This document shows, piece after piece, positions 4,470 through 63,383 of a DNA stretch of 64,000 nucleotides. The DNA is taken from NCBI GenBank assembly GCA_035528375.1, contig DATKYS010000051.1, positions 4,503-68,502 on the forward strand. The letters are read 5' to 3'. Made by a program: the position numbers and the translations under genes. The notes below the pieces were generated by a model, which did no database searches, had not been told where the DNA came from, and saw only the letters and a program-made list of their open reading frames with translations. Source of the stretch: a bacterium (GTDB lineage Bacteria; RBG-13-66-14). The number at the start of each line of letters is the position of its first letter. Position 1 is the stretch's first letter.

Positions 4470-4742
4470 TTCACCCGCGGGCGACCGTGGACGGTCGCCC
4501 CTACGGGGGGCGCTGGATATTGACGTAGGGGCGGGTGTCCACACCCGCCCGTTTTTATCGACAAACCGCGATGATGTAGGGGCCGACCGACGGCGCGCCG
4601 TTCAGGTCGGCCCGCGGGCGACCGTGGACGGTCGCCCCTACGGTGAACTGCACGGTTCTAAATGTAGGGCGGGGACTTCAGTCCCCGCCGCTTTACCCCC
4701 CACCCTGACCCCCCCCAGAGGGGGGAGGGGATAGGGGAAACC
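4470..4742. repeat. REP-like palindromic element cluster (GTAGGGGCGACCGTCCACGGTCGCCCCTAC, GTAGGGGCGGGTGTCCACACCCGCCC, GTAGGGGCCGACC..GGTCGGCCC, GTAGGGCGGGGA..TCCCCGCC, CCCC..GGGGAGGGG units)
   Basis: Several distinct imperfect palindromes bounded by GTAG...CTAC are packed between the paralog-3 stop and the hutH stop. Confidence 0.8.
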
Positions 4743-44052: not shown

Positions 44053-44133
44053 GTTTTTTTCTTGAAATTCTTGTGAATGTGGTATAATATTTACCACAGA
44101 CACTTGAACAGACAACATAGTAATGGAGGAGCT

Positions 44134-44499
44134 ATGTTCGGTGACTTCGTAAAGGCGCAAAGATTGGCGTTGGATTTGAGCCTACGCCAATTTTGCCAGA
44201 AGCTGGAACTGGATCCCAGCAACTGGAGCAAGGTCGAGCGCGGGATTCTTCCGCCGCCCAAGGATGAGGTATTTCTGGAGCGGTTGGCAAATTTACTGCA
44301 AATCGAAATTGGCTCACCGAAGTGGCAAGAGCTCTCCGACCTGGCGCATGTTGACCGGGGAGAGATCCCAGGGTATGTGATGCAGGATGAGGAGCTAGTT
44401 AAATTGCTGCCCGTCTTTTTCAGGACCATTGACAGCATCAAACCCACTAGACAAGAGATAATCCAACTGCTGGAGAGCATTAAGGAGGCGCATAAATGA
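44134..44499 (+). CDS. XRE-family helix-turn-helix transcriptional regulator (AT-rich island)
   Basis: MFGDFVKAQRLALDLSLRQFCQKLELDPSNWSKVERG is a Cro/C1-type HTH. Perfect RBS taatGGAGGAgctATG. Confidence 0.7.
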   Translation: MFGDFVKAQRLALDLSLRQFCQKLELDPSNWSKVERGILPPPKDEVFLERLANLLQIEIGSPKWQELSDLAHVDRGEIPGYVMQDEELVKLLPVFFRTIDSIKPTRQEIIQLLESIKEAHK

Positions 44500-45110
44500 G
44501 CTTTCAATTCATGTGTCCCTTCATCAGAAAGGAAGAGCTTTGGGGGAGGGCGGAAGATATTCGGACCACTTACCTAGTGGACTATAAATTACCTATTGAT
44601 AGCGAGCTGATATGCGAAAAGGCAGGCTTGGATGTAGTACCAACAGCTATGCCGAATGTATTCGATTGTTGCATCATTGTAAGTAGAAATGAGTTATGTG
44701 TTAGTCTGAATAGATATTTAGATGACCGTAACGAAAATCGTCTTCGTTTCACTTTTGCGCACGAATTGGGGCACTTCATCTTACACCGGAGCATTCTTGA
44801 AGAGTTAAGTCTGCAAACGATAGATGATTATCTGGAATTCTTGGATGCAGAGCAAGATGAAGCGTATTTACGTTTTGAGTTTCAAGCCAATGAATTTGCA
44901 GGGCGTCTGTTAGTGCCTAGAGACCTGCTTCAAGAGAGATTCGAAAAGCTAATAAGCTCGATTCCGTCTGACCAACGGGCATTTGTTGCAGATAATCTTG
45001 ACTACCTAAAAACCGTGGCGAGCGAAAAGATTTGTGTCGAGTTTGGTGTTTCCCCAAGAGTCATAGCAATAAGGCTCGAACGCGAAGGGTTGTGGCCTCC
45101 CAGGTTGTAG
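44496..45110 (+). CDS. ImmA/IrrE-family zinc metallopeptidase (DUF955, HEXXH)
   Basis: FAHELGHFILH motif. It overlaps the XRE gene by ATGA. Confidence 0.8.
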   Translation: MSFQFMCPFIRKEELWGRAEDIRTTYLVDYKLPIDSELICEKAGLDVVPTAMPNVFDCCIIVSRNELCVSLNRYLDDRNENRLRFTFAHELGHFILHRSILEELSLQTIDDYLEFLDAEQDEAYLRFEFQANEFAGRLLVPRDLLQERFEKLISSIPSDQRAFVADNLDYLKTVASEKICVEFGVSPRVIAIRLEREGLWPPRL

Positions 45111-49750: not shown

Positions 49751-49936
49751 TCAAGGTTGTGGAATCCCCAGGTCGGCGCATATCTTCTTCGCCAATGTAT
49801 CGCTGATCCCGGTGTGCCTGGGGACCGTGGACATCTTTCCCGTCGTCGCATTCACGAATACGCTGTGCTTACCACCCTCGCGTTTCAGAAGGCACCCGGA
49901 CCCGATCAAATGCTGGATCAGATCCCGGCGTTTCAT
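49751..49936 (-). CDS. hicA: HicA-family mRNA interferase toxin
   Basis: MKRRDLIQHLIGSGCLLKREGGKHSVFVNATTGKMSTVPRH... is the HicA/YcfA fold signature. Confidence 0.8.
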   Translation of the reverse strand: MKRRDLIQHLIGSGCLLKREGGKHSVFVNATTGKMSTVPRHTGISDTLAKKICADLGIPQP

Positions 49937-50202
49937 GCCGTCAGCTGCAAGGGTTCCCGGATAACCTCAGTATTCTCCAATCGTTTTTCCGCTTCCTCCC
50001 GGTAGCACTCCAGCAACAGCCGGACCGCGTCGAGAAGATTCTCCCGGGCCTCTTCGAGGGTCGCGCCCTGGGTGTTCGCGCCGGGAAGCTCTTCCACGAA
50101 GGCGATATAGCCTTCCGGCACTTTCTGAAAAACAGCGGTCAGCTGCACTTTCATCTCCGCTCCTCCATCCGCCGGACGAAACCTGGGTACAGTATAGCTC
50201 AT
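49933..50202 (-). CDS. hicB: HicB-family antitoxin (UPF0150)
   Basis: ...KVPEGYIAFVEELPGANTQGATLEEARENLLDAVRLLLE... It overlaps hicA by 4 nt and lies upstream of it. Confidence 0.7.
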   Translation of the reverse strand: MSYTVPRFRPADGGAEMKVQLTAVFQKVPEGYIAFVEELPGANTQGATLEEARENLLDAVRLLLECYREEAEKRLENTEVIREPLQLTA

Positions 50203-51769: not shown

Positions 51770-52873
51770 TTAAAACTCCGCCTTGACGGCGCCCCAACTC
51801 GTCTGCACCACGTTGAGCTCCTCGGTGGTAAAGCTCCAGACGAAGTCGTATCTCATCTCACGACCGGTACGATCCGCCAGGCAACCGTCCACGGTGCAGG
51901 TGATGAGGTCCACCGGCAGGTCCTCGTCGGGGGTGAATGTGCAGACGACATCGGTCCAGTCGCTGTCATCAATCACGAGCGTTCCCGGAATCTCGCCCGC
52001 GGGCCGGGGATTACAGCTCGTCGAGAGGGAAGACGAACCGGCGCGCAGGGCTCTGTCTCCCGATCGCCGCGACTGGTCCTCCGCCGTGAAGACTATCGTG
52101 GAAACTTCAATTCCAAACATCCCGCTGCAACAGTGGAACACGATGTCCCTGCCCACCGGCACGTCGGATTCCCCGTCATCGGGGTCCATGCCCTCCACCC
52201 AAGGTCGGGGGGAGGTATCGTACCCTATCGCGAATTTGATGGCGTTGTTGTAGAGCACCCAGCCGTCGCCGTCCCAAAAGTGGTAGTCACCGGGGCACAG
52301 GTTGACGGCGGCAGCGAAGCACCATTCACTGACCGCCACCATGTCGGTGCCGTTTTCCAGGTCGGCGATCCAGATAGCGCCGCTCTCCGTCGAGATGTAC
52401 TGCCAGTAGTTGATGTGGGAAATGCTCGAAACGCCGTCCATGATGCCCCAGTAATCTTCGTAATCGCCCAGGCGGGTGCTGGAGTGATAGGTGTAGCCGC
52501 GGGTCAGGGGGCAGTAGTCAGGGTCGCTGGCGTAACGGCCGGCGATGCCCCAGCTGCCCGAGTCGTGAGCGAAGCAGCAGGATACGACGCCGCCGTAGTA
52601 GTCTAAGTAGTCGGCCAGGTTATTCCCGAAGGCCGTGGGGTCGTCGTAGGCGTAGTTGCTCCACGTGAAGACGACGCCGTAATCGTTCAGGGTGTCCATG
52701 CTGGGGGTGGTCGTGGTGCAGTCCAGGAATGTAACGCTGTCGTAGTAGGGGTCGCCGCCGATGTAGGTTTGGGCGTCCGAGGTTGCGCCGGGGTCGGTGT
52801 GGCAGATCAAGATGTCGTACCGCCCCGCGATAGCCGCGGTAACGACCACCAAGACTAACAACGCTCTTCGCAT
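51770..52873 (-). CDS. Secreted protein of unknown function with Ig-like C-region and C-terminal ...QTSWGAVKAEF tail (paralog A)
   Basis: Signal peptide MRRALLVLVVVTAAIAG. Ends ...FVWSFTTEELNVVQTSWGAVKAEF. Confidence 0.6.
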   Translation of the reverse strand: MRRALLVLVVVTAAIAGRYDILICHTDPGATSDAQTYIGGDPYYDSVTFLDCTTTTPSMDTLNDYGVVFTWSNYAYDDPTAFGNNLADYLDYYGGVVSCCFAHDSGSWGIAGRYASDPDYCPLTRGYTYHSSTRLGDYEDYWGIMDGVSSISHINYWQYISTESGAIWIADLENGTDMVAVSEWCFAAAVNLCPGDYHFWDGDGWVLYNNAIKFAIGYDTSPRPWVEGMDPDDGESDVPVGRDIVFHCCSGMFGIEVSTIVFTAEDQSRRSGDRALRAGSSSLSTSCNPRPAGEIPGTLVIDDSDWTDVVCTFTPDEDLPVDLITCTVDGCLADRTGREMRYDFVWSFTTEELNVVQTSWGAVKAEF

Positions 52874-52907: not shown

Positions 52908-54017
52908 TTAAAACTCCGCCTTGATGGCCCCCCAACTCGTCTGCACCACGTTGAGCTCCTCGGTGGTAAAGCTCCAGACGAAGTCCTCCTCCATCTCGAT
53001 ATCGTAGCGGTTGGCCAGGCCGGCGGCGACGGTGCAGGTGATGGCGTCGTCGCCGTTCAGCGGATCGGCGGGGGTGAAGGTGCAGACGACATCCCTGGGG
53101 TCGGTGTCGTCCAGGTCCAGGTCGCCGGCGATCGAGCGGGCGGACTCGAAGTTGGCGCTGATGGCGGCGCTGGCGCTCACCGCACGGCCACCGGAGAGGG
53201 TGGTGTCGCGGGCGGTGAAGTCAATCGTATCCAGGTCAATGGCGAAGAAGTCATCCACGCAGTGAAAGACGATGTTGGTGTCCACCGGCACGCCGGTGTC
53301 CCCGTCGTCGGGGTCCATGCCGGTCACGTAAGGCGGATCATTCGGTATCCAGTAGTTCGTGAGCACGTTCTCCCACAGTTGCTGCTCCTGGCCGCCGCCG
53401 ATGAAGCTCTCATACAGGCCGGTGACGACACCCATGCCGTTCTCCGCCTCCAGAATACCAGCCTGGCCGGCGGTCTCGGTCGCGGTCCAACCGGTCACCG
53501 GGTGAGCGGTGGTCCACGGGTAGCGGTGGTGATAGACGCTTAAGCCCCAGCCGTGGTCGTCCAGTGTCCACGAGGTGATGCCATAGGTGAAGGCGTGGCC
53601 CAGATCCCAGCAGTAGTGGGACGCGGTGAAGACCATCGAGGTCGGGTTGCCGACCCCCATGGCCGTCTCGAGGGCGTCGTTGTAGCTGCCGTGCGCGTAC
53701 CAGTCGAAGTAGTGCAGCTTTGCGAAGTCGTTGTACCAGTTCGTCAGGGCGGTGTAGTCGCTGGTGGTGTAGCTGGTGTAGTTAATTGCGGCGACGATGC
53801 ACATATCCCAGTCGCCGCCTGTCAGGCTGGATATGAAGGTGGACCAGGTGCTGCCATCGTAGTACGTGGCGGAGCAACTCGGCCACAGGTCGCTTATCGC
53901 GCTGGAGAGGTAGCTGCCGCCGTACGCAGTGTCGTACTTGACGATTATGTTGTCGGGGTCCTGCCCCATCGAAGCCAGTACCAACAGAGACCACAGTATT
54001 ATCAACGCCTTGCGCAT
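52908..54017 (-). CDS. Secreted paralog B with the same C-terminal ...QTSWGAIKAEF tail
   Basis: Signal peptide MRKALIILWSLLVLASMG. The last 25 aa are almost identical to paralog A. Confidence 0.6.
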   Translation of the reverse strand: MRKALIILWSLLVLASMGQDPDNIIVKYDTAYGGSYLSSAISDLWPSCSATYYDGSTWSTFISSLTGGDWDMCIVAAINYTSYTTSDYTALTNWYNDFAKLHYFDWYAHGSYNDALETAMGVGNPTSMVFTASHYCWDLGHAFTYGITSWTLDDHGWGLSVYHHRYPWTTAHPVTGWTATETAGQAGILEAENGMGVVTGLYESFIGGGQEQQLWENVLTNYWIPNDPPYVTGMDPDDGDTGVPVDTNIVFHCVDDFFAIDLDTIDFTARDTTLSGGRAVSASAAISANFESARSIAGDLDLDDTDPRDVVCTFTPADPLNGDDAITCTVAAGLANRYDIEMEEDFVWSFTTEELNVVQTSWGAIKAEF

Positions 54018-54230: not shown

Positions 54231-54412
54231 CTTCCGGCTTGAAGCCGGCCACGGCCCCGCGAGGAGTGTTCCGGTCGTTCTCAATCCCTCCCCGCGAGCG
54301 AACGCGAACCTACATCCCATACTTCCGGCTTGAAGCCGGCCACGGCCCCGCGGGGAACGGTTCAGGTTTCTCACAATTCCGCCCCGCGAGCGAACGCGAA
54401 CCTACATGCCGT
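54231..54412. repeat. Imperfect tandem duplication (approx. 92-bp unit x2) each carrying the hairpin CCGGCTTGAAGCCGG
   Basis: cttccggcttgaagccggccacggccccgcg....cccgcgagcgaacgcgaacctacat occurs at 54231 and again at 54323. The second copy abuts the kbl stop. Confidence 0.7.
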
Positions 54413-55649
54413 ACTTGGCGATTATCCCGTCCTTGTCCAGGCCGAGGATGCCGTACTTATCGCCCACCTTGCGGAAGGCCTCCACGCACTTGTCAATGTG
54501 CGCCTTCTCGTGGGCGGCGGAGAGCTGGACGCGGATGCGCGCCTGGCCGTTGGGCACCACGGGGAAAAAGAAGCCGATGACGTAGATGCCCTCGGCGTAC
54601 ATGTCGCGGGCCATGTCGTTGGCCAGCTTTGCGTTGTAGAGCATGACCGGGACGATGGGGGTCTCGCCGGGGCGGACGCTGAGCCCGGCGGCGGTTATCC
54701 CCTCCCGGAAGTACTTTGTATTGGCCTCCAGCTTGTCCCGGCGCTCCGTGCTCTTCATGATTATCTCCAGGACCTTGAGCGAGGCGGCGGTGATGACCGG
54801 CGAGAGCGAGTTCGAGAAGAGGTAGGGCCGGGCCTTCTGGCGGCAGAGCTCCACCAGCTCCCTGCGGCCCGACACGCACCCGCCCGACGCACCGCCCAGC
54901 GCCTTGCCCAGCGTCGTCGTGATGATGTCAATCTTGCCCATCACGCCGAAGTGCTCGTGGACCCCGCGGCCGGTCTTGCCGATGAACCCCGAGGCGTGGG
55001 AGTCGTCCACCAGAATCATGGCGTCGTACTCCTCGGCCAGGGCCACCATCTCGCCCAGGGGGCACATATCGCCGTCCATGGAAAAAACGCCGTCGGTGAC
55101 GATGAGCCGGTTGCGCTTGCCCTGGTGCTGCTCCAGCTTCTGCGCCAGGTGCTTGGTGTTCATGTGCTTGAAGGTGTCGTACTCGGCGGAGCAGAGCCGG
55201 ATGCCGTCCACCAGGCTGGCGTGGATGAGCCGGTCGGCGATGATGACGTCCTCGGGGCCCAGGACGGCCTCGAAGACCCCGGCGTTGGCGTCCATGCACG
55301 ACGGGAACAGAAGCGTGTCCTCGGTGCCCAGGAACTCGGTCAGTTTATCCTGCAGCTCGCGGTGGATGTCCTGGGTGCCGCAGATGAAGCGGACCGAGCT
55401 CATGCCGTAGCCGCGGGTGTCCAGGCCTTTGTGGGCGGCGGCGATGACCTCGGGGTGGCTCGAGAGGCCGAGGTAGTTGTTGGCGCAGAAATTTAAAACC
55501 TTCTCCTGAGCCGCGCCCTCGGGGTACTCCACGGTGATTTCCGCGTCCTGGGGCGAGCAGATGAACCGTTTTTCCTTGTAGAGGCCCTTGCTCTTGATCG
55601 CTTCTATTTCCTCGGCGAATCCGGCGCGGGACACCTTCGAGTAGGCCAT
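54402..55649 (-). CDS. kbl: 2-amino-3-ketobutyrate CoA ligase (glycine C-acetyltransferase), PLP-dependent alpha-oxoamine synthase family
   Basis: NFCANNYLGL, SVRFICGTQD, PLP-lysine region TLGKALGGASGG, RPYLFSNSL and GIYVIGFFFPVVPNGQARIRVQLSAAH match Kbl residue for residue. Confidence 0.8.
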   Translation of the reverse strand: MAYSKVSRAGFAEEIEAIKSKGLYKEKRFICSPQDAEITVEYPEGAAQEKVLNFCANNYLGLSSHPEVIAAAHKGLDTRGYGMSSVRFICGTQDIHRELQDKLTEFLGTEDTLLFPSCMDANAGVFEAVLGPEDVIIADRLIHASLVDGIRLCSAEYDTFKHMNTKHLAQKLEQHQGKRNRLIVTDGVFSMDGDMCPLGEMVALAEEYDAMILVDDSHASGFIGKTGRGVHEHFGVMGKIDIITTTLGKALGGASGGCVSGRRELVELCRQKARPYLFSNSLSPVITAASLKVLEIIMKSTERRDKLEANTKYFREGITAAGLSVRPGETPIVPVMLYNAKLANDMARDMYAEGIYVIGFFFPVVPNGQARIRVQLSAAHEKAHIDKCVEAFRKVGDKYGILGLDKDGIIAKYGM

Positions 55650-55745
55650 GACTCCTCCTGACGAAAAGAGGTGGCGTTTTTTTTATAGATGAGTGCGTAG
55701 GCCGTCCCCTCCCCCCTTGGGGGGAGGGTTAGGGAGGGGGGTCCC

Positions 55746-56000
55746 CTACTTGGCCTGGAACTTCTTCACCAGCGCCACGATGGAGTTCACCGTGTCGAAG
55801 GCCTCGGGGGTGGCCTCCTCGTCGGGGAGCTTGATGTCGTACTTCTTCTCCAGGAAGACCTTGAGGGAGACCATGGAGAAGCTGTCCACGATTCCGCTGG
55901 AGATGAGCGGCGTATCGTCATCTATTTTGATGTCGTCGTCCTCGTCAACGTATTCGCCGATGACGTACTCGCGGACGGTATCGTGCATCTCGCGGGACAT
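55746..56000 (-). CDS. Acyl-carrier-protein-like protein (phosphopantetheine-attachment Ser in ...SSGIVDSFSMV...)
   Basis: 84 aa, acidic, with a DSx-type attachment motif and ACP length. Confidence 0.6.
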   Translation of the reverse strand: MSREMHDTVREYVIGEYVDEDDDIKIDDDTPLISSGIVDSFSMVSLKVFLEKKYDIKLPDEEATPEAFDTVNSIVALVKKFQAK

Positions 56001-56036
56001 GGGCGTTCCTTTCAGATTTAATATCTATGTTAGAAG

Positions 56037-56387
56037 TTAACTTTCATCTATCTCAATCAAGTTAACTGCTTCCTGTTTTAGTCTGGAGCTTATTATTTGA
56101 TTCATTAAATTGTAATCGTTTTTATCCATTTTTTTAACTTTAAGTCTATTTTTTACCTCACATAAAGGTAACGACATCACCAATAAGCCAAATGCTTCAT
56201 CAAGAAAAGAAACTGAAGCGATAATTAACCCTTCAAAGTCCAAAATAATAACTTCACCCTTAGGCCATCGGCCTATAATAGCTTCTCTAACTGCTTTCCC
56301 TGCATCACGCGTCGCAACCCACTGACCAGCAGTTATTTTCTTAATTGAAAAGATCATCCGAAATCTCCTCGAAAAGTGTTTGTTCAT
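56037..56387 (-). CDS. STAS-like (DUF4325-type) small protein, AT-rich island
   Basis: ...GEVIILDFEGLIIASVSFLDEAFGLL... is a STAS/anti-sigma-antagonist-like core. Low GC. Confidence 0.45.
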   Translation of the reverse strand: MNKHFSRRFRMIFSIKKITAGQWVATRDAGKAVREAIIGRWPKGEVIILDFEGLIIASVSFLDEAFGLLVMSLPLCEVKNRLKVKKMDKNDYNLMNQIISSRLKQEAVNLIEIDES

Positions 56388-57210
56388 CTGTATAGACTAG
56401 AGGGATAATTATATAAATAGTAACGCCTTTTACATAAGCAGTTAATTTTTTCACGATTCTACGTGTTTTCTTTTTTTGTTTTTCATATGTAACCATACCC
56501 AAACCAGACAAATAACTTACATTTCCATTAACGTTTAATATACCTACCTTAATATGTTGCAGTCCCATTCCCCCAACAGCCTGTTTTCTCGTTGTAACTT
56601 GTGTTTCTACTGCTGTTTTTATTGCTTCAATATCATTAGATAAATCTTTTTTTACTGTTAACAATGAATTTAAAAACCCTATACCATAGTCTGAAATTGA
56701 AATATGAATTTGTTTTTTCTTAGAGTAAATTTGACCACATACAACACACCCAAACGGTGATTCACTATGGTCTTTTACATTCGTTGTTAATTCATTCATA
56801 CATAATTGAGTTATAAATAATATATTATCATGCAAATAAGGAACTTGGTCCTTAATTATCTCTAAATATTCTAACACTTTCTGCTCATAGTGTTTACTAA
56901 TAGGAGTAAGTTCGAATGTAGTTCTATTCAACTTCCTTGTTGTAGCTTGACCATAAAATCCACTTGATTTTAAATATTCTCTAGTTCCTTGTGACCTTGG
57001 TTCAATTATATACAATCTTTTAAAATTCCTGAAATATTGTTTTATTGAATGATATAATAGAGATATTGCAAATGGTTTAATACTTAGTACATTACTAAAA
57101 TCCAGAGTTACTTCATCTTTGGTTTCTGATAATTCATTACATCTTTTTATCATTGCATCCACAAAATGAATACTTAAATGTGAATGAAACTTTATTGTTT
57201 TCATAATCAA
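56341..57210 (-). CDS. GHKL-superfamily ATPase (RsbW/SpoIIAB-like histidine-kinase-like ATPase), AT-rich island
   Basis: N-box LCMNELTTNVKDHS, G1 box ISDYGIGF and G2 GGMGL. Low GC. It overlaps the downstream STAS-like gene. Confidence 0.55.
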   Translation of the reverse strand: MIMKTIKFHSHLSIHFVDAMIKRCNELSETKDEVTLDFSNVLSIKPFAISLLYHSIKQYFRNFKRLYIIEPRSQGTREYLKSSGFYGQATTRKLNRTTFELTPISKHYEQKVLEYLEIIKDQVPYLHDNILFITQLCMNELTTNVKDHSESPFGCVVCGQIYSKKKQIHISISDYGIGFLNSLLTVKKDLSNDIEAIKTAVETQVTTRKQAVGGMGLQHIKVGILNVNGNVSYLSGLGMVTYEKQKKKTRRIVKKLTAYVKGVTIYIIIPLVYTDEQTLFEEISDDLFN

Positions 57211-57332
57211 ATTCCTTTTAAAAAGTGCTTTTTAGTAAAGTGTATACAAAACCCCACTGAAGACTTTCAGGCGAACCTGGAAGTTGGTCCAGTGGGGAGG
57301 AAGTACGGACGTAGTATAGACCGATTCATCGG

Positions 57333-57368
57333 GTTTGTCAAGTTTGTCGGGTTTGTCAGGTTTGTCAA
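57333..57368. repeat. Four tandem copies of a 9-bp unit GTTTGTC(A/G)(A/G)
   Basis: gtttgtcaa gtttgtcgg gtttgtcag gtttgtcaa lies at the right edge of the AT-rich island. Confidence 0.8.
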
Positions 57369-57406
57369 GGGAGGCAGGCAGTGGCCTCTTGTTGCCGCCT
57401 TCGGGG

Positions 57407-57426
57407 CAAGGGGCTTAAGCCCCTTG
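57407..57426. promoter_or_regulatory. Perfect 20-bp palindrome CAAGGGGCTTAAGCCCCTTG
   Basis: It is self-complementary. A near-identical palindrome is CAAGGGGTTTAAACCCCTTG at 63353..63372. Confidence 0.5.
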
Positions 57427-57445
57427 TATTACCGTCCGCAGGGTG

Positions 57446-59191
57446 TCAATCGTCTTCCAGAGTGGATAAATCCCCGACTTCCTCGCCCCACTCGAGGGCG
57501 CGGAGGTAGCGCCGCAGAATCTTCCCCGACCGCGTCTTCGGCAGCTTGTCCGTGAACTCGATTTCCTGGGGCATGGCCAGGGGCGAGAGCTTCTTGCGGA
57601 TGAAGTTCATTATCGAGAGCTCGAGGTCGCCCGTGGGCTCGTAACCCGGATTGAGGGTGACGAAGGCCTTGACGACCTCCATGTTGACCTCGTCGGGCTT
57701 GCCGACTGCGGCGGCCTCGGCCACGGCTTCGTGCTCGATGAGGGCGGATTCTATCTCGAAGGGCCCGACCAGGTGACCGCCGGTGTTTATCACGTCGTCG
57801 TCGCGGCCCACGAACCAGTAGTACCCCTCGGGGTCTATGGAGGCCCGGTCGCCGGAGACGTACCACAAACTTTTATCCTGCCGCAGGTCGTCGGGGTCGC
57901 GGTCGTCCACGTCGCCGACGAACTTCGAGCGGTACACGTCGGGCTTCGCGTGGTAGGCGCGGAACATGGCGGGCCAGCCGGGGCGGAAGGCGATGAGCCC
58001 CACCCGGCCCGGCTCGGTCACCGGCTCGTGGGTCTTCAAATCCAGCACGGTGGCCTCGATGCCGGGGAAGGGCTTGCCCATGGATCCCGGCTTGATGGGC
58101 ATTCCGGGGTAGTTGGAGATCATTATGGAGCCGGTCTCGGTCTGCCAGAAGGAGTCGTGGAAGGGCAGCCCGAAAGCCTCCTGGCTCCAGATGACGGCCT
58201 CGGCGTTCAGCGGCTCGCCCACGCTGACCAGGTGCCGCAGGCAGGAGAGGTCGTACTTTTTCACCGTTTCCGTGCCCTGGCGCATGAGGGAGCGGATGGC
58301 GGTGGGGGCGGAGTACCACACGGTGATCCGGTTGTCCTGGATGAACTTGTACCAGCGGTCGGCGCTGAAGCCCTCGTCGAGGACGCACTGGGTTATCCCC
58401 ATGCTCCAGGGGCCGATGATGCCGTAGCTGGTGCCGGTGACCCAGCCGGGATCGGCGGTGCACCAGTAGACGTCGTCGTCGGTCAGGTCCAGAACCCACT
58501 TGGTGGTGATGTACTGGGCCCAGATGGAGGCGTGGACGTGCTGGGCGCCCTTGGGCTGCCCCGTGGTGCCCGAGGTGTAGTGGAGGACCGAGGGGGTCTC
58601 GGGGCCGGAGGGGAATACGTCGAAGCGTTCGAGGCGCGGGGCGGCCTCCACGTCGAAGAAAATCTCGCCGGGCTTGAGCTTGGCCTCCTCGCCGTCCACG
58701 ACGATGACCTTCTCCAGGGCCGGGAGGGAATCCCGGATTTTGCGGACCTTGCGCACGTGCTTTTGGGTGGTGAGGATGGCGCGGGTTCCGGCACTTTCCA
58801 GGCGGACATGGAGGGAGTCGTCGCCGAAGGCGGAGAAGAGCGGCTGCGCGATGCCGCCCATTTTCAAGACGCCCAGGAAGGAGAAGTAGAGGCTCGGAAT
58901 CTTGTCCATGAAGATGCAGATGCGGTCGCCGGGCGCCAGGCCCTGGCCGGCGAGGAATTTGGCGAAGGCGTTGGAGTGGGCCCGCAGGTCCGCGAAGGTG
59001 TAGGCGGCCCGCCTGCCGCCGAAGCCCTCCCACACCAGGGCGGTATTAGCGCCAAGGCCGCGGTCGCAGACCCGGTCGGAGCAGACGGCGCCGATGTTCA
59101 GGGGCTCGCCCTCGGTCCAGCCCAGCTCCCGCCGGGCGATGTCCCAGGAAAAACCTTTCAGCCTCTCGTCGTAGGAGCCGATGTTACTCAT
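57446..59191 (-). CDS. AMP-forming acyl-CoA synthetase of the acetyl/propionyl-CoA synthetase family
   Basis: AMP-binding motifs YTSGTTGQPKG and FWQTETG, hinge ...GDRASIDPEGYYWFVGRDDDVIN, and the C-terminal KTRSGKILRR. Confidence 0.85.
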   Translation of the reverse strand: MSNIGSYDERLKGFSWDIARRELGWTEGEPLNIGAVCSDRVCDRGLGANTALVWEGFGGRRAAYTFADLRAHSNAFAKFLAGQGLAPGDRICIFMDKIPSLYFSFLGVLKMGGIAQPLFSAFGDDSLHVRLESAGTRAILTTQKHVRKVRKIRDSLPALEKVIVVDGEEAKLKPGEIFFDVEAAPRLERFDVFPSGPETPSVLHYTSGTTGQPKGAQHVHASIWAQYITTKWVLDLTDDDVYWCTADPGWVTGTSYGIIGPWSMGITQCVLDEGFSADRWYKFIQDNRITVWYSAPTAIRSLMRQGTETVKKYDLSCLRHLVSVGEPLNAEAVIWSQEAFGLPFHDSFWQTETGSIMISNYPGMPIKPGSMGKPFPGIEATVLDLKTHEPVTEPGRVGLIAFRPGWPAMFRAYHAKPDVYRSKFVGDVDDRDPDDLRQDKSLWYVSGDRASIDPEGYYWFVGRDDDVINTGGHLVGPFEIESALIEHEAVAEAAAVGKPDEVNMEVVKAFVTLNPGYEPTGDLELSIMNFIRKKLSPLAMPQEIEFTDKLPKTRSGKILRRYLRALEWGEEVGDLSTLEDD

Positions 59192-63033: not shown

Positions 63034-63352
63034 CGTGCAGAAATAAACCTCACACAGGATTATAGCAACATTCGTTCCACGGTCAAGGTCGGGTCGGAGA
63101 ACCCCCGTCCCCCCGGAGCGACGGACGGGTCCCGATCCGCGCCGAAGGCCCCTTTGGCCCCCAGCCACCAGAAGAACTCAGGAACCGGCCGAAAGTTTCC
63201 CGCGTAGGGGTAGGCAATCATCCGGCACATTTTTCGTGGGGGTTCGACCCCCCGGGGGGGATTTCCCCCCCCGCCTTGACTCCGACGAACTTTTCATCTA
63301 TTATTGGATGATTAAAACCGGCTCTCCACCGCTCCCAATAAAAAAAATGGAG

Positions 63353-63372
63353 ACAAGGGGTTTAAACCCCTT
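63353..63372. promoter_or_regulatory. Perfect 20-bp palindrome CAAGGGGTTTAAACCCCTTG 11 nt upstream of uvrA start; candidate operator
   Basis: It is self-complementary and sits immediately 5' of the ATG at 63384, after an A8 run. Confidence 0.45.
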
Positions 63373-63383
63373 GCCACTACCAC

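Follow-up and report, generated by a model that had tools for sequence, protein, structure and literature searches.

The 64,000-nt window analysed here, from contig DATKYS010000051.1 of assembly GCA_035528375.1 (a bacterium of the RBG-13-66-14 lineage), contains a compact two-gene cassette inside a metabolic operon. About 1.23 kb of low-GC DNA (27-36%, in a genome of about 65% GC) lies between the acyl-CoA ligase and acyl carrier protein (ACP) genes of an operon with the order acpS, ligase, ACP and kbl, and the GC fraction is 0.27-0.36 over positions 56000-57300 versus about 0.60-0.70 in the flanks. Two overlapping minus-strand open reading frames (ORFs) make up the coding content of this island. 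They encode K, a putative VapK-like serine kinase, and S, a VapS-like protein with a single STAS domain, and together they probably form a kinase-substrate switch. The upstream flank is an AMP-forming acyl/acetyl-CoA ligase (57446-59191; Pfam AMP-binding, 2.8e-73; NCBIfam PRK04319, 728.9 bits), and the downstream flank is ACP (55746-56000; Pfam PP-binding), followed by kbl (54402-55649), a glycine C-acetyltransferase equivalog in NCBIfam (582 bits); these genes, like all window features below unless stated otherwise, lie on the minus strand. Loci from many candidate phyla, 80 in all, share the order acpS, ligase, ACP and kbl, usually with a ligase-ACP gap of 17-150 bp; in about 60 outgroup loci the gap is 17-231 bp. 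This confirms the original prediction, made by a model from the letters of the window without database searches, that a low-GC island splits an otherwise coherent operon.

The open frame of K spans 56341-57210 and encodes 289 aa from a TTG codon. More probably, the kinase starts at the ATG at 57204 (56341-57204, 287 aa), which has an AAGGA ribosome-binding site ahead of it and is also the start in the NCBI record. The open frame of S spans 56037-56387 (116 aa), and the ATG at 56357, which is both annotated and conserved, is the more likely start, yielding a protein of 106 aa (56037-56357) whose start overlaps the kinase stop codon by 17 nt. The third-position GC is 0.19 for the kinase gene and 0.32 for the STAS gene, compared to 0.89-0.93 for the flanking genes. 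Between S and ACP, a 36-nt spacer (56001-56036) that reads as hairpin-free ends in the ACP ribosome-binding site GAAAGGAAC (56013-56005), and the cargo-specific sequence stops at about 56016. The arrangement GAAAGGAAC-N4-5-ATG, comprising the ribosome-binding site and start codon of ACP, is conserved in loci L001, L002 and L087. A simple terminator scan, whose rules leave out the loops or tails of the leader and palindrome described below, returned no sites, including between S and ACP, and read-through of the cargo transcript into ACP-kbl is therefore likely.

At its N-terminus, K carries a STAS domain (about residues 1-90); a disordered linker joins it to a GHKL kinase domain of the SpoIIAB type. 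In an alignment of 50 family sequences, residues E140, N144, D174, G176, G216 and L217 are invariant and G178 and G214 nearly so, which bears out the Bergerat-fold N, G1 and G2 boxes (ExxxN, DxGxG and GxGL) recognized in the original prediction. The Pfam HATPase_c model scores K at 19.3, below its cut-off of 26.4. In profile searches against the PDB, the C-terminal half of K matches histidine-kinase catalytic domains and SpoIIAB, and the N-terminal 90 residues match STAS proteins, while a single-sequence phmmer search of K against the PDB returned only spurious zinc-finger matches. A homologue of K from a Burkholderia phage exceeds the Pfam STAS cut-off. The long N-terminal extension noted previously is thus present, although it is a STAS domain rather than a mere extension. 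In the model of K, the beta-1 strand of this domain begins at residue 4, and no helix-turn-helix (HTH) domain was found on K with Pfam or in the model. An exhaustive profile search at E<=1e-3 retrieved 2,124 cluster representatives, most of them 280-300 aa long and matching over their full length, indicating that the N-terminal region is a feature of the family; word-indexed homologue searches gave only 3-9 proteins, so that a family of about 2,100 representatives is visible only with the exhaustive profile search. K also matches phrog_3364, a phage family of unknown function, at 8.7e-35. Neither cargo protein has a meaningful match in NCBIfam.

S matches Pfam DUF4325 (4e-10, 39.7 bits against a gathering threshold of 23), as expected from the earlier description of the small protein as STAS-like. 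DUF4325 is the sole Pfam domain in its 106 aa, with no DNA-binding domain, and the single STAS domain is followed by a short C-terminal helix, as in VapS. A profile built from seven DUF4325 partners matches the VapS crystal structure 9z7o ('Escherichia VapS') at 7.4e-9 over residues 13-94. Among seven diverse partners, the invariant columns of S are G20, F41, G43, S50, F51, F56, L59 and K69. A tblastn search of S against phages and plasmids gave no hits, the query being too short and divergent for such a search.

These architectures resemble those of two recently described systems (Chambers et al., EMBO J 2026, PMC13373217). CapK, an HTH-STAS-GHKL kinase activated by single-stranded DNA (ssDNA), phosphorylates the repressor CapS (STAS-winged HTH), and adjacent immune operons are de-repressed. 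VapK, a STAS-GHKL kinase, has the antitoxin VapS (a STAS domain with a C-terminal helix) as its proposed substrate, and the phosphorylation would release the PIN toxin VapC; the vapKSC operon protected E. coli against phage Bas42 (PMC13373217). VapS carries an absolutely conserved Ser/Thr phospho-acceptor, S48, on STAS helix alpha-2, and an aromatic residue (W68 in CapK, F54 in VapK) in a predicted ssDNA-binding site is needed for the kinase-mediated responses (PMC13373217). The VapK sequence, taken from the supplementary AlphaFold model of that study, scores E=2.1e-48 against the profile centred on the window kinase, the match covering nearly all of VapK, and the E, N, D and G catalytic columns are invariant in all 51 sequences when VapK is included. 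Because VapK matches the kinase profile and the catalytic columns are conserved, we assign the pair, by its sequence, to the CapK/VapK-CapS/VapS family, with the domain designs of VapK and VapS.

The likeness to VapKSC extends to the STAS-GHKL kinase without an HTH, to the order of the genes, with the kinase gene followed by the STAS gene, and possibly to a conserved Ser at the start of helix alpha-2 of the S STAS domain. In contrast, the window cassette has no VapC (PIN) toxin gene, and the pair lies inside a metabolic operon, whereas VapKSC is a free-standing three-gene operon. Like CapK-CapS, the pair consists of a GHKL kinase with a STAS domain and a partner, and it lies directly upstream of another operon that runs in the same direction; unlike CapK, K lacks an N-terminal HTH, and unlike CapS, S lacks a winged-helix domain and so cannot be a CapS-type repressor, and the downstream operon is ACP-kbl rather than an immune system. 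A CapK-CapS-like arrangement may also be present on the Vibrio plasmid pCECT7223 (L084, 5638-7306), where a 360-aa 'ATP-binding protein', a distant relative of K, is followed by a 180-aa HTH-domain protein near a type I restriction-modification gene and recombinases. Compared to SpoIIAB-SpoIIAA and RsbW-RsbV, the window kinase differs in having its own fused STAS domain and the module differs in being mobile, with prophages in its distribution; no sigma factor or PP2C phosphatase of the SpoIIAB/RsbW type was found among the ORFs of 50-64 kb. The same two domains occur in a DISARM DrmA variant with an N-terminal HATPase-DUF4325 fusion, and one PADLOC DrmA model (PDLC02567) aligns with K and S through neighbouring N-terminal segments (136-258 and 315-393), suggesting that these domains also act as a module when fused to a defence helicase. 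In the window, by contrast, K and S are free-standing, and no helicase or other DISARM gene accompanies them. Streptococcus prophages carry pairs of the same design in an accessory region between their lysin and paratox genes, and others lie in accessory regions of Burkholderia prophages. Two defence-discovery papers that mention HATPase proved to concern other systems and were set aside.

The pair is not confined to the window. It is carried at the same position by four lineages (the window; L002, L088 and L090; L081 and L092; and L087), while L001 and L082 have a single NYN-domain gene in its place that matches the PADLOC defence candidate HEC-09. In a neighbour-joining ligase tree, built without bootstrap support, all loci with either cargo fall in one clade in which pair and NYN carriers are interleaved, the sister of the window is an NYN carrier, and the approximately 60 outgroup loci have neither cargo at the junction. 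Other insertions were seen at the junction further afield: in the low-GC outgroup locus L069 (7752-9311) it holds a complete type II restriction-modification system with an N6_N4 methylase and a BglII-family endonuclease, and in two WOR-3/Stahlbacteria loci 2.7-3.0 kb are inserted, encoding a 257-aa protein that matches a PADLOC TIR effector model (L062, 9415-10188) and a 390-aa protein without a family match (L066, 9261-10433).

In all four lineages the third-position GC of the pair is 0.19-0.45 and that of the flanking genes 0.68-0.94. The ratio of nonsynonymous to synonymous divergence (dN/dS) of the pair is 0.08-0.22 across the four lineages, and 0.08-0.14 for the S gene, with saturated synonymous divergence, which indicates purifying selection on both genes. 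The ligase, ACP and Kbl proteins of L081 and L002 are 94-95% identical, with a synonymous divergence (dS) of about 0.2-0.27, whereas their kinases are only 50% identical, with a dS of 2.6, near saturation. At the ligase stop codon the nucleotide identity falls from about 95% to 22-80%, and it rises again where ACP begins. We read the pairs as old, diverged alleles, far older than their flanks, that have probably been exchanged by recombination in the conserved flanking sequences. Such a pattern is typical of defence loci exchanged in this way and is also seen at other diversifying loci. No direct repeats were found flanking the cargo, and no recombinase, integrase or replication gene was found among the nearby ORFs; the ends of the cargo fall at elements under functional constraint, namely the leader on one side and the ribosome-binding site of ACP on the other. 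The foreign origin suggested in the original prediction therefore holds only in part, since the pair sits at the same position in four diverged lineages and is an old resident, while its codon usage is still non-native; of the refuting condition given there, conservation at this locus across the clade with native codon usage, only the first half applies. The lasting AT-richness could possibly reflect selection for low expression, or, with alleles too diverged for internal recombination, an escape from GC-biased gene conversion. Family membership and slot structure, taken by themselves, are highly probable.

On this basis, we favour the explanation that the pair is a two-gene kinase-substrate switch of the CapK/VapK-CapS/VapS family that resides in a clade-specific cargo slot, made up of promoter, leader, cargo and ACP ribosome-binding site, and acts on an output in trans, and we assign this statement as a whole a probability of roughly 0.6. 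It builds on what was observed, namely membership of the family, the domain architecture, the conservation of catalytic and presumed acceptor residues, purifying selection, the slot structure and the exchange of cargo; by analogy with the known systems, we infer from these the kinase activity on S, its trigger, its target and the defence role. By homology to CapK-CapS, VapK-VapS and SpoIIAB-SpoIIAA, K would use ATP in response to a stress or infection cue to phosphorylate a serine of S at the start of helix alpha-2 (Ser50 or the neighbouring Ser48), and the phosphorylation would change the binding partners of S. Because the cassette has neither a VapC toxin nor a DNA-binding domain, the target of S (or of K) would have to be encoded elsewhere, and because Ser replaces, in this clade, the aromatic residue on which ssDNA activation of the known kinases depends, the activating cue may differ from ssDNA. 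The cassette thus appears to be a real and functional variant of a recently described family, located in a small recombining slot that elsewhere holds defence-type genes. The kind of module proposed in the original prediction, partner-switching or defence-type, seems right, and a role in defence or the stress response is plausible from homology and from the other occupants of the position; we rate a specifically anti-phage role at slightly less than an even chance.

Several observations weigh against this explanation. No PIN or NYN effector gene was found in the cassette or in the 64-kb window (ORF list, with tblastn for NYN), and at L087, L088 and L092 there is likewise no effector gene, the next gene being ACP as in the window. 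The residue equivalent to F54 of VapK and W68 of CapK is Ser in the window (Ser43), L002, L081 and L087, that is, in all four lineages, while it is F, W or Y in 38 of the 51 family members and in the phage homologues. The conserved Ser50 of S aligns one residue after VapS S48, and Ser48 one residue before it, in the hidden Markov model alignment, and the AlphaFold2 model of S (pLDDT 46.5) is too poor to place the residue. The pair is located upstream of a metabolic operon rather than an immune one. PADLOC has no dedicated model for the K-S pair, and the defence-catalogue comparison yielded only the DrmA fusion model, which aligns to both proteins. Finally, the function of the toxin-less pair is proposed by comparison with systems that carry their outputs, and both the transcription start (about 57306) and the read-through into ACP are predictions.

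The absence of a separately encoded effector is also what one would see if the pair were a complete two-gene toxin-antitoxin or abortive-infection system, in which the kinase is itself the effector on an essential host or phage protein (HipA-like) and S is a pseudo-substrate inhibitor. The genes overlap as in toxin-antitoxin pairs, the very low third-position GC would hold translation low, as expected of a toxic product, pairs without a third gene recur in the prophage accessory regions, and DUF4325 partners are antitoxins of PIN toxins (PMC5499597; PMC13373217). However, every characterised relative (SpoIIAB, RsbW, CapK and VapK) has the STAS protein as its substrate, with the output further downstream, and the kinase gene comes first here, whereas most type II toxin-antitoxin pairs have the antitoxin gene first. 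We regard a kinase effector as unlikely.

The position of the pair could alternatively point to control of the embedding pathway at the protein level, for example by binding of S or of the kinase STAS domain to the adjacent ACP, so that stress would act on ACP-Kbl activity. CapK-CapS lies directly upstream of the operons it controls (PMC13373217), the pair has been retained just upstream of ACP-kbl without a terminator in four lineages, and a solved STAS-ACP complex exists (YchM, 3ny7). Against such control, S lacks a DNA-binding domain, an NYN nuclease replaces the pair at the same position in sister genomes, about 60 outgroup genomes run the operon without an insert, and the homologous phage pairs have no ACP nearby, which makes it a distinctly improbable explanation. 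Even less probable is a decaying, functionless remnant of a three-gene vapKSC-type system that has lost its toxin. The absence of VapC and the loss of the ssDNA-sensing aromatic residue would fit decay, but the frames are intact, purifying selection persists in four lineages despite saturated synonymous divergence, the catalytic residues and Ser50 are invariant, and phages also hold toxin-less pairs in which the aromatic residue is kept.

A last alternative concerns the promoter-side elements of the cassette, which follow the ligase stop codon on the minus strand in the order palindrome, 9-mer array, promoter, 63-nt hairpin leader and cargo. The perfect 20-bp palindrome (57407-57426, an exact match) lies 20 nt past the ligase stop codon (57446). 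In the alignment of five genomes (the window, L001, L002, L081 and L082), its stem is kept in L081, which carries the pair, and in L082, which carries the NYN gene, and is thus independent of the cargo. In L082 (about 4540-4600, minus strand), the stem is intact and the loop has an insertion of about 20 nt compared to the window and L081. The palindrome folds modestly better than shuffled sequences (z=-1.8), and it is best read as a conserved 3' stem-loop of the ligase transcript, not as an island boundary. A near-copy with 2 mismatches at 63354-63373, in the 5' leader of a uvrA-like gene, suggests that the hairpin motif recurs in the genome. This near-copy (CAAGGGGTTTAAACCCCTTG) lies downstream of a promoter-like site, TTGACT-N17-TATTAT, within 63276-63373 on the plus strand.

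The tandem 9-mer YYGACAAAC was detected by Tandem Repeats Finder at 57333-57369 (period 9, 4.1 copies). Its last, promoter-proximal copy is the -35 hexamer of a sigma-70-type promoter, TTGACA-N17-TATACT (57313-57341), which has 11 of 12 consensus matches and is the top site in the region. The motif is present four times only in the window and once in each of L001, L002, L081 and L082, and no further copies were found elsewhere in the window. Because the -35 motif is single-copy in all other aligned genomes, the array is most simply a local, window-specific 27-bp expansion of the -35 region. The promoter is invariant in the five genomes, its spacer holds the inverted repeat CCGAT-GA-ATCGG, and scans for the motif in genome loci (matches in L001 and L002) and in metagenome contigs (matches in L081 and L082) located it only at the ligase-ACP junction.

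Downstream of the promoter, a structured 5' leader (57244-57306) forms a long tetraloop hairpin followed by GGGG-UUUUGUAU, with a minimum free energy of -27.8 kcal/mol and z=-5.3 compared to shuffled controls. RNAalifold on the five genomes gives 22 base pairs, 6 of them with compensatory changes, and at a permissive threshold Rfam gave no match for the leader, only two chance-level hits in the region. The sequence common to the five genomes ends directly after GGGGTYTTGTAT, at about 57243/57244, and cargo-specific sequence follows the leader. L087, the basal carrier, has no separate promoter or leader. We propose that transcription would run from the near-consensus promoter through the conserved hairpin leader and the cargo, and probably on into ACP-kbl. 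The original prediction was accurate about the existence of the 4x 9-bp repeat and the palindrome, but these elements do not bound the island, as some 90 bp separate the repeat from the end of the cargo-specific sequence at about 57243. That they are an insertion scar, an att site, iterons or an operator at the island edge is hardly tenable: both are close to the composition change, and the short inverted repeat in the promoter spacer could be an operator, but the palindrome stem is conserved with either cargo and recurs at uvrA, the array overlaps the -35 hexamer and is single-copy in the four other slot-bearing genomes, the cargo edge is about 90 bp away, and no integrase or replication gene was found nearby.

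The favoured switch in a cargo slot shares several properties with known defence hotspots, including conserved flanks, sharp identity breakpoints, alleles older than the flanks, and interchangeable defence-type cargo (the K-S pair, the NYN/HEC-09-like gene, restriction-modification and a TIR-like gene). What sets it apart is the very small size of the slot (one or two genes), its location within an operon, the lack of an integrase, and the presence of a conserved promoter and a structured leader of its own. Unlike an integron cassette, the locus has no integrase or recombinase and no att/attC repeats at the cargo junctions. It is conceivable, if doubtful, that the promoter, hairpin leader and ACP ribosome-binding site together constitute a single-slot, integron-like expression platform without an integrase, into which unrelated defence cassettes are swapped at the same nucleotide positions, with the pair representing a stand-alone class of sensor that responds to a cue other than ssDNA and has its target in trans.

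The first description of the CapK/VapK-CapS/VapS family dates from 2026 and covers only forms with an evident output, either a DNA-binding repressor or a PIN toxin. Toxin-less pairs are not described there because only loci with all three vap genes were retained (PMC13373217). The window locus and the prophage pairs represent a widespread form with neither repressor nor toxin, and they raise the questions of what an effector-less kinase-STAS pair controls and what activates it. As a clean natural case of a defence-type cargo slot of very small size within a housekeeping operon, with sharp exchange boundaries, alleles much older than the flanks, and AT-richness held over long divergence in a GC-rich genome, the locus is also useful for studying the exchange of immune genes and their resistance to drift toward host composition.

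Two other interpretations of the surrounding locus were rejected. The host operon is unlikely to be a sphingolipid (Spt) cluster, as its aminotransferase is the glycine C-acetyltransferase equivalog and the serine palmitoyltransferase models of NCBIfam score well below their cut-offs, and an assembly chimera is at odds with several independent assemblies that carry the same arrangement. The ACP-kbl spacer is a second spot that varies between genomes; in the window (55700-55745) it contains G/C-rich hairpins of the form GGGGGAGGG...CCCTCCCCC, which are also present after the ligase stop in L087 (2555-2585). Beyond kbl, two adjacent paralogous ORFs (51770-52873 and 52908-54017) have hydrophobic N-termini resembling signal peptides, and their C-termini carry almost the same motif, FTTEELNVVQTSWGA(I/V)KAEF, which may be a sorting signal. 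A small ORF at 49933-50202, in a region of slightly lower GC (0.58-0.60), resembles a HicB-type antitoxin, judged from its translation alone. On the plus strand, a second low-GC island (44077-45110; 0.40-0.50 versus about 0.68) contains an overlapping gene pair encoding a 140-aa XRE-type HTH-like protein and a 204-aa ImmA/IrrE-peptidase-like protein with an HExxH motif (FAHELGHFILH), the latter with a weak match to the NCBIfam spr1629 repressor/antitoxin model.

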